A stretch of 64,000 nt of DNA from a virus (Duplodnaviria > Caudoviricetes): the IMG/VR virus record IMGVR_UViG_3300035698_029580; one strand, 5' to 3'. Positions 52,514 to 63,289 of the stretch are shown piece by piece. The stretch's first letter is position 1. Every line of letters starts with the position of its first letter. The notes below the pieces were generated by a model. It did no database searches. It saw only the letters and a program-made list of their open reading frames with translations, and was not told where the DNA came from. The translations under genes and the position numbers were made by a program.

Positions 52514-52729
52514 TTGGCTGTACTTATGGAAAAAATTGAAATTAAGCCAATTTTTATAACTGAGGAAGATAAGAAATTTCTCGATGAATTTACCAAATCA
52601 CAGAGAATTTTCCAGCATTATATAAGTAATCTCTTTAGGTTGCCAGAAGAATTAATTACTGGTAAAAATAATTTTACGGAAAAAAAAGAAAAGTTAGCAA
52701 AGAACAGATTTGAATTGATGGATATATAA
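52514..52729 (+). CDS. small protein ending KNRFELMDI
   Basis: Shared C-terminal tag; start uncertain. Confidence 0.55.
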   Translation: MAVLMEKIEIKPIFITEEDKKFLDEFTKSQRIFQHYISNLFRLPEELITGKNNFTEKKEKLAKNRFELMDI

Positions 52730-52806
52730 GTTAAAATATTAAACAAAATTTTATTTTTATCACAATTATTAGTATATTTTTTGTGACACTATTTAAGGAA
52801 ATAAAA

Positions 52807-53265
52807 ATGAAGAAATTATATAAACCTTTTTTAACATATATTGTTTGGGGCATTATATTTATTATTTTTTTTATTCTTTTGTTATTTGTTCATAAATGTT
52901 TTGAAAGAGTAGTAGAATATGAAAATATAATGCAACCAATTGAATTTGAAGTATTAGAGACACATGAGGGCACAGAGGAAGGATTAGTATCAACATTCTT
53001 ACAAATAGAATTTCTTGATCAAATATTTTTAGAAGATGTTAAATTAACAAGTTCTGAGATTAGTTATTTTGAGAAAAATAAAAAATTTAATAGTAAACTG
53101 TCTTTCATGTTATTTAGAAAAGACAGAATTACAGATTTATTTTTATATATTAATACTAGATGTGTTCATAAAATAAAAATAGATTATAAGATGTCAAAAT
53201 ATTTAAGAAAAAAATGGGACGAAAAAAAGAAATTAAGTAGAAATATTTTTGTAGAAGATATTTAA
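52807..53265 (+). CDS. membrane-anchored protein, paralog of 54204
   Basis: TM helix; FLEDVKLTSSEI versus FLDDITLTPSEI. Confidence 0.6.
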   Translation: MKKLYKPFLTYIVWGIIFIIFFILLLFVHKCFERVVEYENIMQPIEFEVLETHEGTEEGLVSTFLQIEFLDQIFLEDVKLTSSEISYFEKNKKFNSKLSFMLFRKDRITDLFLYINTRCVHKIKIDYKMSKYLRKKWDEKKKLSRNIFVEDI

Positions 53266-53705
53266 TGAAAAATTATATTTTACAGACTAAAGAAAAGGGA
53301 TATTGTGGTTGTTATCTTATTGCTCTTTTAAATGCAAGAATTTATTATAATAATCCATTTATAACTTCTTTAGATGATCCTCGATGGGAAGAATTAGTTG
53401 ATAAATATCATTGTAGAAGTGGTTCGTGTTTAGTCAGAGAAGAAGCAAGAAAAGAGATAGGTATAGAGGCAGAAACTATAAGTAGAAAAGAAATACCTAA
53501 TCGTTTTCCTGTTTTGTTGACTTCTTTTACAAAAGTTGGTTTTCATTGTTCTTTACTTATTGATGTAGATAGATATAATTGGACAATTGTTAATTATGAT
53601 GGATATAAGGGAAAAACGGTAATGAGTGTTAATATTAGAAATATTGTTTTACCTCTTTTGGGAAGCATTTCGGATACTTATTATTTTTTAAGAGAAGAGA
53701 AATGA
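53265..53705 (+). CDS. putative papain-like (C39-type) peptidase
   Basis: LQ..GYCG..LIALLNA, FHCSLL and IVNYD suggest a Cys-His-Asn/Asp arrangement. Confidence 0.4.
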   Translation: MKNYILQTKEKGYCGCYLIALLNARIYYNNPFITSLDDPRWEELVDKYHCRSGSCLVREEARKEIGIEAETISRKEIPNRFPVLLTSFTKVGFHCSLLIDVDRYNWTIVNYDGYKGKTVMSVNIRNIVLPLLGSISDTYYFLREEK

Positions 53706-54187
53706 CGAAAAAACTTTCAAAATTTCACGAAAAGAACATTGTTAATGTGACATTAGACAATTATCAAAAGGTAATAAAATTAGTTCGTTTATCAATGGAT
53801 GGTTTACAGGCTGAAAATGCTGATTATTCATTTAGTGATATTAATTCATATTCTACTCGACTTTCTTATTTATATATAGAAAACGGAATACCAATAGGTG
53901 TAATTGGGTATTATTGGGATGACAGAGAAAAAAAAGTAGTTTGGCTTTCATATTTTGCTGTACACCCTGACAGGCAAAGAGAGGGGCTTGGAGAGTGGTT
54001 ATTAAATTATTTGGAAAAAATATTGAGAGATATAAATGTAAAGAAATTATTCGTAGAAACTTATGATGGACCATTTTATGAGAAGGCTGTTAATTTTTAC
54101 AAGAAAAACGGATTTGTTAAAAAGGGAAATTTACAAGACTATATGTCTGATAAATGGGACATATTATATTTTGGCAAAAAATTATAG
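53702..54187 (+). CDS. GNAT acetyltransferase
   Basis: FAVHPDRQREGLG and AVNFYKKNGF motifs. Confidence 0.88.
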   Translation: MTKKLSKFHEKNIVNVTLDNYQKVIKLVRLSMDGLQAENADYSFSDINSYSTRLSYLYIENGIPIGVIGYYWDDREKKVVWLSYFAVHPDRQREGLGEWLLNYLEKILRDINVKKLFVETYDGPFYEKAVNFYKKNGFVKKGNLQDYMSDKWDILYFGKKL

Positions 54188-54203
54188 TAGAAGGGATATT
54201 ATT

Positions 54204-54848
54204 ATGGCTGAGAAGCATTATTTTTTTGGAGATTTTTTTGTAGTTGGAGAAAATGCGTCACTGGCTATTGTTGTAATATTATATTTATCTTTTATTATTC
54301 TTGGTATTTTATTATTTGTGTCATCTTTTCATATCTATGACCCCCGACCTTTTAATGGTTTTGTTCCTGTTGATATGGAGATAATAGGAGCAAATGAAAA
54401 TAGTAGATCAATTAAATTTGATTTTTTTGGAGAGACATTTTTAGATGATATTACTTTAACTCCATCAGAGATTATAGTTTTAGATGGACAATCTGTATTA
54501 ACAGAAGATATTCAATACAGTGGAACCATTAAAAATATAAATCAAATTAGAGTTTTACCTTTATATTTGGGGGCAAGAAAGGTTAAAGAAATAAGAATAG
54601 ATAATGAAAATGCTAGAGAAAGAATAGGTAAAAATATTATAAATGTTGAATATAAAACATATAATTATATTATGACTCATAAATTATTAATTCTACTATC
54701 AACTATTTTTGTATTATCAGCGGGGATTTTATTAGTTCATAATTTATCTTATTATTATAAAAATCATAAAAACAAACCTAAAAAACCAGCTAAAAAAAGC
54801 ATGCTAGAAATGATGGAAGACAAATATAAAGAAAGGAACACATTGTAA
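54204..54848 (+). CDS. two-TM membrane protein ending SMLEMMEDKY
   Basis: Two hydrophobic helices; paralog of 52807. Confidence 0.6.
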   Translation: MAEKHYFFGDFFVVGENASLAIVVILYLSFIILGILLFVSSFHIYDPRPFNGFVPVDMEIIGANENSRSIKFDFFGETFLDDITLTPSEIIVLDGQSVLTEDIQYSGTIKNINQIRVLPLYLGARKVKEIRIDNENARERIGKNIINVEYKTYNYIMTHKLLILLSTIFVLSAGILLVHNLSYYYKNHKNKPKKPAKKSMLEMMEDKYKERNTL

Positions 54849-61887: not shown

Positions 61888-61890
61888 AAA

Positions 61891-62574
61891 TTGAAAAATT
61901 CAGTTAAAAAAGAAATAGAACAGATAGTTAAGAAAGGACTATTAAATTGTTCTGTAGAGAAATTTAAAGATAAAATTAATTGGTTTTGTGTTACTAAAAA
62001 TGAAAAATTATCTGAAGAATTTATTAGAGAATTTAAAGATAAAGTGAATTGGTATGATATCTCTTATTGTCAAATATTATCAGAAAATTTTATAAGAGAA
62101 TTTAAAGATAAAGTGGATTGGGATTTTATTTCTGAATACCAAAACCTATCAGAAGAATTTATAAGAGAATTTAAAGATAAAGTTGATTGGGATATTCTTT
62201 TTCAAAGCATAAAATTATCAGAAGATTTTATTAGAGAATTTCAAAGTAAAGTTGATTGGTGCATAATTTCTTATTCTCAAAAATTGTCAGAAGATTTTAT
62301 TGAAGAATTTAAAGATGTATTACACTGGAATAAGATAAAATCTTTCCAAGAATTAAGTTGTGATTTTATTGTAAAACATATTGATAAATTTGATTGGAAA
62401 AAATTAATAATAGATTTAATAATTAAGGTAAAAATAGAAAGTAGAGATAATTTTATAAAAGTATTAAAAGAAATTGTATTAAAAGAAAATGAATTAAATA
62501 TTTCTTCTATTGATAATTTTAATAATAAAATAGAAGATTTGTGTACTAATAGATGGCAATTAATGGATATTTAA
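61891..62574 (+). CDS. Trp-repeat protein (about 6 x 23 aa) ending NRWQLMDI
   Basis: 69-bp tandem repeats. Confidence 0.75.
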   Translation: MKNSVKKEIEQIVKKGLLNCSVEKFKDKINWFCVTKNEKLSEEFIREFKDKVNWYDISYCQILSENFIREFKDKVDWDFISEYQNLSEEFIREFKDKVDWDILFQSIKLSEDFIREFQSKVDWCIISYSQKLSEDFIEEFKDVLHWNKIKSFQELSCDFIVKHIDKFDWKKLIIDLIIKVKIESRDNFIKVLKEIVLKENELNISSIDNFNNKIEDLCTNRWQLMDI

Positions 62575-62577
62575 AAA

Positions 62578-63078
62578 TTGAAAAATTCTGTTAAAAAAGA
62601 AATAGAAAAAATAATTAAAGAATTAGAAATAGGGTGTAATATCGAAGAATTCAAAGATCATGATGTCGTTGATTGGGAAGAAATTTCTGTTTACCCAACT
62701 TTATCAGAAGATTTTATAAGAGAATTTAAAGATAAAGTTAGTTGGTGGTATATTTCTTTTTGTCCAACTTTATCAGAAGATTTTATAAGAGAATTTAAAG
62801 ATAAAGTGGAATGGTATTGTATTTCTATAGGTCAAAAATTATCAGAAGATTTTATTCGTGAATTCAAAAATGAAGTTAGTTGGGAATATATGTCTGAATA
62901 TCAAAAATTATCAGAAAAATTTAAAATTGAATTTAAAGACAAAATAAATTATATAGAAGGGTCTTCTGAAAAAGTTGTAATAGAAAAATCTTCTATTGAT
63001 TTCTCTCAAAAATTTGAAACAGAAAATAAAGATAAAGTCAAAAATAGATGGCAATTAATGGATCTATCTCTAGATTAG
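62578..63078 (+). CDS. Trp-repeat protein (4 repeats) ending KNRWQLMDLSLD
   Basis: 69-bp tandem repeats. Confidence 0.75.
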   Translation: MKNSVKKEIEKIIKELEIGCNIEEFKDHDVVDWEEISVYPTLSEDFIREFKDKVSWWYISFCPTLSEDFIREFKDKVEWYCISIGQKLSEDFIREFKNEVSWEYMSEYQKLSEKFKIEFKDKINYIEGSSEKVVIEKSSIDFSQKFETENKDKVKNRWQLMDLSLD

Positions 63079-63097
63079 CATATATAGGAGATATTAA

Positions 63098-63289
63098 ATG
63101 GTTATCAATTACGAAGACTCTGAAATTGAAAAATTAATTAATGAGTTAAATCTTAATTACTCTATTGAAGAATTTAAAAATAGAATAGTAACTATCAGAA
63201 AACTTCTATATGAAACATCTGATGATATTATTGTCAAAACAGAAAATAAATATAAAGTTAAAAACAGATGGCAATTAATGGAGATTTAA
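63098..63289 (+). CDS. repeat-less member of the Trp-repeat family
   Basis: EIEKLI.EL.L..SIEEFK cap joined almost directly to KNRWQLMEI. Confidence 0.65.
   Translation: MVINYEDSEIEKLINELNLNYSIEEFKNRIVTIRKLLYETSDDIIVKTENKYKVKNRWQLMEI

Follow-up and report, generated by a model that had tools for sequence, protein, structure and literature searches.

A shared C-terminal peptide on seven genes of a megaphage

The DNA analysed here is a 64,000-nucleotide stretch of the IMG/VR virus record IMGVR_UViG_3300035698_029580 (Duplodnaviria; Caudoviricetes), referred to at its full length as the window, in which seven open reading frames (ORFs) between positions 52,514 and 63,289 end in the same short peptide, hereafter the tag. 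Judged by its major capsid protein, which is 54% identical to gp27 of Bacillus phage G and 80-87% identical to its counterparts on IMG/VR contigs that reach 548 kb, the window is part of a phage-G-related phage of about 500 kb. Near-identical DNA is found in salt-lake metagenomes, whose contigs span five of the tags with zero differing letters; these may come from the source campaign itself and thus counter assembly error only. No RNA dataset was found among the listed runs that contain window DNA.

A six-frame scan with N[RK][FW][EQ]L[ML][DE] returns exactly seven matches in the 64 kb, all on the plus strand, in frame and at ORF ends (Table 1), as the original prediction had stated, against about 2e-5 matches expected by chance from the composition of the window's proteins, for a motif that was defined after the fact. 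All seven ORFs, each named by its first position, carry the form NR[FW][EQ]LM[DE][ILF] behind a K/E-rich charged linker and within 0-3 residues of the stop: the last hydrophobic position is the final residue in five and is followed by three further residues in two. The lysine that had been placed at the head of the tag is not universal, its position being taken by threonine in 61891. As predicted, some copies share DNA and others do not, the linker-tag tract being identical in 61306 and 62578 while the remaining copies differ at synonymous sites.

Table 1. Tagged ORFs and other features of the window. The TnpB-like, LAGLIDADG/methyltransferase-like and Panacea/SocA-like rows come from sequence reading only.
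Feature	Position	Strand	Remark
Tagged small ORF, own family, 67-71 residues	52514..52729	+	tag 52703-52726
Trp-repeat protein (phrog_3532)	57403..57879	+	tag 57844-57867, then 3 residues
Tagged small ORF, 65-67 residues	57866..58069	+	tag 58043-58066
Tagged 193-residue protein, own family	61306..61887	+	tag 61861-61884
Trp-repeat protein (phrog_3532)	61891..62574	+	tag 62548-62571, T replaces preceding K
Trp-repeat protein (phrog_3532)	62578..63078	+	tag 63043-63066, then 3 residues
63-residue Trp-repeat N-terminus remnant, linker and tag	63098..63289	+	tag 63263-63286
Major capsid protein	40997..41869	+	marker placing the window among phage-G-related megaphages
Intein-bearing portal	29859-33263
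LAGLIDADG/methyltransferase-like fusion	48878-51037
Panacea/SocA-like small gene	51886-52374
TnpB-like insertion	54976-56166	-

The bodies in front of the tag are diverse, as claimed, with their independence overestimated: four of the seven are Trp-repeat paralogues, namely 57403, 61891 and 62578, which have 23-residue repeats and match phrog_3532 at E 1e-34 to 1e-47, and 63098, which keeps only the N-terminal segment of the family, and the other three (52514, 57866 and 61306) have bodies of different kinds. In the related contig L160 a Trp-repeat gene carries the body and tag of 57866 as a fusion, which is direct evidence of module shuffling. A much longer linker precedes the tag in one homologue of 52514, and another is without the full tag; the ORF gave a weak Phage_portal match (E 0.018) and none to the window's own portal, and a 2505-residue match was dismissed as a spurious repeat ORF. 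For 61306 we found a partial tagged relative in contig L185 and a weak tail-tube/Hcp-like fold lead; its product has no identical database record and no homologue at E 0.01.

None of 120 proteins recovered in a search for Trp-repeat homologues is tagged. Most of the long homologues (P0001-P0120) end instead in another C-terminal domain, the last strand of which loosely resembles the R...[DE]Φ spacing of the tag (Φ, hydrophobic), and at the opposite end of the window an apparently degenerate Trp-repeat gene without a tag lies on the minus strand (817-1128).

Selection on the peptide and spread of the tag

Selection acts on the peptide. When the complete relative G008 (779 called genes) was scanned by DNA distance, 35 of 36 matches with at most three mismatches were terminal and in frame, and the mismatches fell predominantly on third codon positions (106, versus 35 on first and 13 on second positions). 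One conserved bearer is a protein of zincin fold (Z ~7) with an invariant HExxH plus E, 96 of whose 103 homologues keep the tag behind a variable linker; conservation reaches 90% for R, 84% for F, 84% for L and 96% for D, compared with 20-57% across the linker, and in orthologues as distant as about 35% identity the tag is still better conserved than the linker. As many as 12 residues may follow it. The purifying selection that the original prediction expected is thus present, together with third-position changes, a single frame and retention in orthologues.

Among relatives the tag takes the form [SNTD]R[FW][ED]ΦΦ[DE]Φ and occurs on many genes. With the pattern stripped of its stop codon, a metagenome scan placed 75 of 100 scorable matches within five codons of a stop, and for contigs of at most 32% G+C the scan table gives 63 of 67 matches within three codons, confirming the anticipated bias towards protein ends; scans of viral contigs with a generic pattern returned mostly chance matches. 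Some contigs are nearly saturated, with 24 tagged ORFs in 12.8 kb of L142 and 10-15 in 4.7 kb of L201. G008 has 52 terminal matches versus one internal, or 67 tagged genes with a relaxed pattern, and G067, G068 and G069 have 31, 20 and 13 matches compared with 0-1 in controls. The seven genes of the window therefore understate the scale, which in relatives reaches dozens of genes per genome. Two complete relatives, G013 and G032, have no tags above chance, and G014 carries a variant without R on 7-9 genes, orthologues of tagged G008 genes included.

The 252 tagged bodies fall into 137 families, and the 67 of G008 into 51. Tagged G008 proteins are small (median 105 residues, maximum 268), they make up 14% of its genes below 200 residues, and 41 of their genes lie in a single 16-kb block of small genes. 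Across the relatives the tagged bodies include Trp repeats, a second repeat family, an expanded SH3-like family, an acyl-carrier-like protein and pieces of 30-46 residues drawn from four different regions of the major capsid protein, the same family that places the window. These capsid-piece mini-genes (L142 5477-6227, L148 1657-2235 and G008 508421-508639; 42-72% identity) include two that join two pieces in reversed order, an arrangement kept in two contigs. The tag is terminal, portable and selected at the protein level, as a docking-type motif grafted onto unrelated bodies had been expected to be; it also varies between lineages and is present on dozens of genes per genome.

An ORF in L617 (11464-11742) has a tag-like sequence at its N-terminus and not at its C-terminus. 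Proteins with an rSAM-type N-terminal FVSNSSSSSF, noted in the replication block of G008, G013 and G014, also bear the C-terminal tag in L142 and L148.

A Ycf46-like module as candidate partner

Conservation is highest among bearers of the replication block, which are separated by a few genes from a Ycf46-like AAA+ ATPase; such a D1-D2 ATPase is found in the tagged relatives G001, G008, G014, G065 and G067-G069. Its structural model is p97-like in the two ATPase tiers, has no N-domain and ends in a disordered tail, which in tagged phages closes on [RK]xLD[LI] or a close variant and thereby has its last three residues in common with the tag. All of the tag-rich genomes (G008, G067, G068, G069), as well as G014 with its variant tag, combine an ATPase bearing a ΦDΦ tail with a DUF2997 protein, and a 67-residue DUF2997-like paralogue ending in Cys-Gly is encoded beside the DUF2997 and clamp-loader genes (L526 891-1091; G008 293563-293766). 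In G013 the ATPase is tailless, and DUF2997, the Cys-Gly protein, the zincin and the tags are all absent. The zincin itself occurs in every tag-bearing genome whose block is covered and is missing from all six genomes that are tag-free or tag-poor. Across ten genomes the endings of ATPase and clients co-vary (permutation p ~2e-4, for hand-picked genomes and without regard to their kinship). R-x-Φ-D/E-Φ tails are also seen on DUF3150-type neighbours of the module in other phages, and the cultured mycobacteriophage Corndog encodes a Ycf46-like ATPase, gp96 (L612 9723-11423), that ends RVLDL and offers a tractable model.

A counterpart exists in myxobacteria. Across 185,579 prokaryote genomes the pattern RFxLLELD-stop is dominated by one Kofleriaceae/Haliangiales protein family, consisting of a small domain, a long linker and an invariant tail, and encoded in an operon of the order FHA, Ycf46 ATPase, DUF1257, DUF2997, eCIS-core, pentapeptide, tagged protein, TPR. 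Ycf46, DUF1257 and DUF2997 genes lie upstream in 34-35 of the 39 loci with enough DNA, the operon's ATPase ends R[EK][LI]EL, its eCIS-core gene is metallopeptidase-like, and the motif occurs about once per genome, at the operon.

A proposed docking system and its alternatives

We consider it probable that the tag is a protein-level docking motif with one common partner. In the mechanism we propose, the tail would act as a short linear motif, [SNTD]-R-[FW]-[EDQ]-Φ-Φ-[DE]-Φ, kept free by its charged linker. Synteny and the shuffled modules suggest that the oldest bearers were conserved replication-block genes, above all the zincin-fold protein, and that recombination then copied the tail onto dozens of small accessory proteins. 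From gene context, a single receptor reading the tail may belong to the phage Ycf46-like module (ATPase, DUF2997 and the Cys-Gly-ending paralogue), a tentative assignment that falls somewhat short of an even chance. Because the ATPase's own tail shares the ΦD/EΦ ending, it and the clients probably plug into the same site. Tagged proteins would thereby reach the motor and be remodelled, unfolded or cleaved there, or would titrate it; that the clients are in fact remodelled or degraded is doubtful.

Several results weigh against assigning the partner to this module. None of the module's genes lies within the 64-kb window, so that the link between tag and module rests on relatives; DUF1257/Ycf35 gave no match at E 0.1 in the complete genomes G008 and G014, in a search that did detect the Synechococcus control. 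ATPase tail and tag coincide in no more than their last three residues, the arginines of the two being offset by two positions. The module is not sufficient for the tag, as G085 has the ATPase, DUF2997 and the Cys-Gly protein while 100 kb of its sequence shows no tag, and the RF tag is missing from many further Ycf46 phages. In a quick tree the ATPases of tagged phages form one clade, which together with the single orthologous family of the myxobacteria leaves few independent events. Co-occurrence with the tag is at least as close for the zincin as for the ATPase, and the RFxLLELD-stop pattern was picked after the Ycf46 lead. A complex prediction of the last 30 zincin residues with ATPase residues 1-536, DUF2997 and the Cys-Gly protein scored 0.01 and carries no weight either way.

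Among the alternatives that place the partner elsewhere, docking onto a host protein (the host's own Ycf46/DUF1257 machine, a protease adaptor, a chaperone or RNA polymerase), with the many bearers titrating or redirecting it by motif mimicry, appears unlikely: the near-identical ending of a bacterial protein, lineage-specific variants that could track different hosts and the concentration of 41 tagged genes in one small-gene block of G008 all fit, but the motif is confined to about one copy per myxobacterial genome, is borne by conserved replication-block genes and varies in its ending with the phage's own ATPase. A role of the tagged zincin-fold protein, alone or in its complex, as the partner is improbable; the tail would then be a recognition or self-association signal for a putative phage metalloprotease. 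The invariant active-site residues and fold, the distribution across genomes and the metallopeptidase-like gene of the myxobacterial operon speak for this, but the co-occurrence is partly circular, the zincin itself being tagged, and its tail is of low confidence in the monomer model. Still less probable is a peptide for the phage's DnaN-like sliding clamp, one of the three hubs originally proposed, along with RNA polymerase and the AAA+ unfoldase that now has genomic support. These phages do encode a clamp and a clamp loader, both named by reading their sequences, the PF00712 profile having missed the clamp, and the G014 variant resembles the T4/RB69 clamp peptides; against this, the clamp is also present in tag-free G013, polymerase, helicase and primase are all untagged, the C-terminal half of DnaE has a conserved ending of its own, of the D[MLI]F type, no tagged G008 gene exceeds 300 residues, and the tag differs from both the beta QL[SD]LF and the T4 [ST]LDFL consensus. 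An address label for virion assembly or particle loading is the least probable of these, for all that some bodies are capsid pieces, one has a weak tube-like fold and the bacterial operon contains an eCIS-core gene, since the structural block of G008 (its first 110 kb) has no tags and most tagged bodies look cytoplasmic and accessory.

The remaining alternative denies the tag any protein function and regards it as a DNA cassette spread by recombination or as a gene-end feature for translational coupling. The identical tract of 61306 and 62578, the shuffled modules and some codon bias within the tag are in keeping with this, as is the closeness of the next start codon, at most 15 nucleotides away in 54 of 68 tagged genes versus 376 of 711 others. 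Shine-Dalgarno-like words are, however, rarer after tagged genes (13 of 54 versus 177 of 376), and the tag is retained at genes whose downstream neighbour is distant, results on which its role as a ribosome-binding site was rejected. With the codon-position bias, the one fixed frame, the conservation in distant orthologues and the tolerance for trailing residues, they make a purely nucleic-acid role improbable and largely refute it for the conserved bearers; recent copies such as 63098 may still fit.

Relation to known systems

That one partner can recognise a terminal peptide common to several proteins is already known from clamp peptides, T7 tails, degrons and the cofactor motifs of p97/Cdc48 (VIM, VBM, SHP, PIM). 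The last of these offer a close parallel to the docking system proposed here: p97/Cdc48 has the same double-tier AAA+ fold as the phage ATPase and one short motif common to many unrelated proteins, and the zincin-fold protein bearing the motif in these phages recalls Wss1/SPRTN. Unlike p97/Cdc48, the phage system has neither N-domain nor ubiquitin, its motif is different in sequence, its bearers are dozens of small proteins and its docking is predicted. A speculative and rather unlikely extension would be a ubiquitin-free, hard-wired p97-like system in which acquiring an eight-codon tail could enlist any gene as client or adaptor to the phage's AAA+ motor, the tagged metalloprotease serving as a Wss1-like partner and about a seventh of the small genes, capsid pieces included, being wired in.

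The cyanobacterial and plastid system of Ycf46 with Ycf35 (DUF1257) and DUF2997 shares its ATPase family and DUF2997 with the phage module; the latter differs in being phage-encoded, in giving no DUF1257 match in G008 and G014 and in its large set of tail-tagged proteins. Ycf46 has been described solely as a stress-induced, KaiC-interacting AAA ATPase (PMC13683863), and a jumbo-phage survey names AAA+ chaperones and zincins and, in the passages searched, no such tail (PMC7824862).

Among other systems, the clamp peptides of T4/RB69, the acidic tails of T7 and the beta-clamp motif each put a short C-terminal peptide on several phage proteins, and ssrA, C-terminal degrons and HbYX/GQYL tails are terminal peptides read or borne by an AAA+ machine. 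Whereas the former occur on a small number of proteins for replication or transcription, the tag is found on dozens of small unrelated ones and not on polymerase. Unlike the latter it is gene-encoded, tolerates up to 12 further residues and has an acidic-hydrophobic end, its penultimate residue being D/E with none of the penultimate Tyr of HbYX/GQYL. The likeness that the original prediction saw to poxvirus ankyrin plus F-box/PRANC adaptors holds for architecture, a variable repeat body with a constant C-terminal handle, as in the Trp-repeat members, and not for domains: Pfam gave no F-box/PRANC or ankyrin match in the seven window proteins, the handle is eight residues long and no domain, most bearers are without repeats and bacteria lack SCF. 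Consistent with the original statement that no phage system of this form is described, we found no published description of the tag in the literature searched, whose coverage left out most subscription papers. The longer RF tail is new here, as are its expansion to dozens of genes, the selection tests, the correlated absences seen in G013, the zincin and the counterpart in myxobacteria.

For most of the small genes of huge phages no function can be assigned, and a tail that is common to dozens of them and under selection unites these in a single pathway. The tag is in effect an eight-residue bait, with which the long-orphaned Ycf46/Ycf35/DUF2997 machine also becomes directly testable in cyanobacteria, plastids, myxobacteria and cultured phages such as Corndog, whose ATPase ends LDL. 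The shuffling of body, linker and tag as modules is in turn a route to new genes.

Phylogenetic placement and further features

In a capsid tree the window falls outside the G008/G014 clade with weak support; this tree was built by a quick method and includes one mis-extracted row, so that the order of gains and losses is not readable from it. No close Ycf46-like ATPase of phage G was among the matches.

A second shared tail, S[MVIF]LE-x-ME-x-KY, lies 1-6 residues before the stop of four window ORFs (54063-54848, 58893-59342, 59213-59776 and 59796-60287), which belong to two unrelated families, one of membrane proteins and the other a set of three paralogous genes; five genes in L160 and two in L220 carry it as well, and what seems to be a broken extra copy is found near 54896-54940. 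A perfect sigma-70 promoter with an extended -10 element lies at 63755-63782, past the final gene of the tagged block. In the replication block of G008, G013 and G014 DnaE is split, its halves ending in conserved DDxGGVDRY and S[VMQ]D[MIL]F. The 548-kb phage contig P0121/G008 is deposited within the metagenome-assembled genome of an Asgard archaeon, probably through a binning error, and a possible clue to the host is a PEP-CTERM-type gene on the contig of a tagged phage (L213 4445-5047), which resembles such genes of Phycisphaerae.

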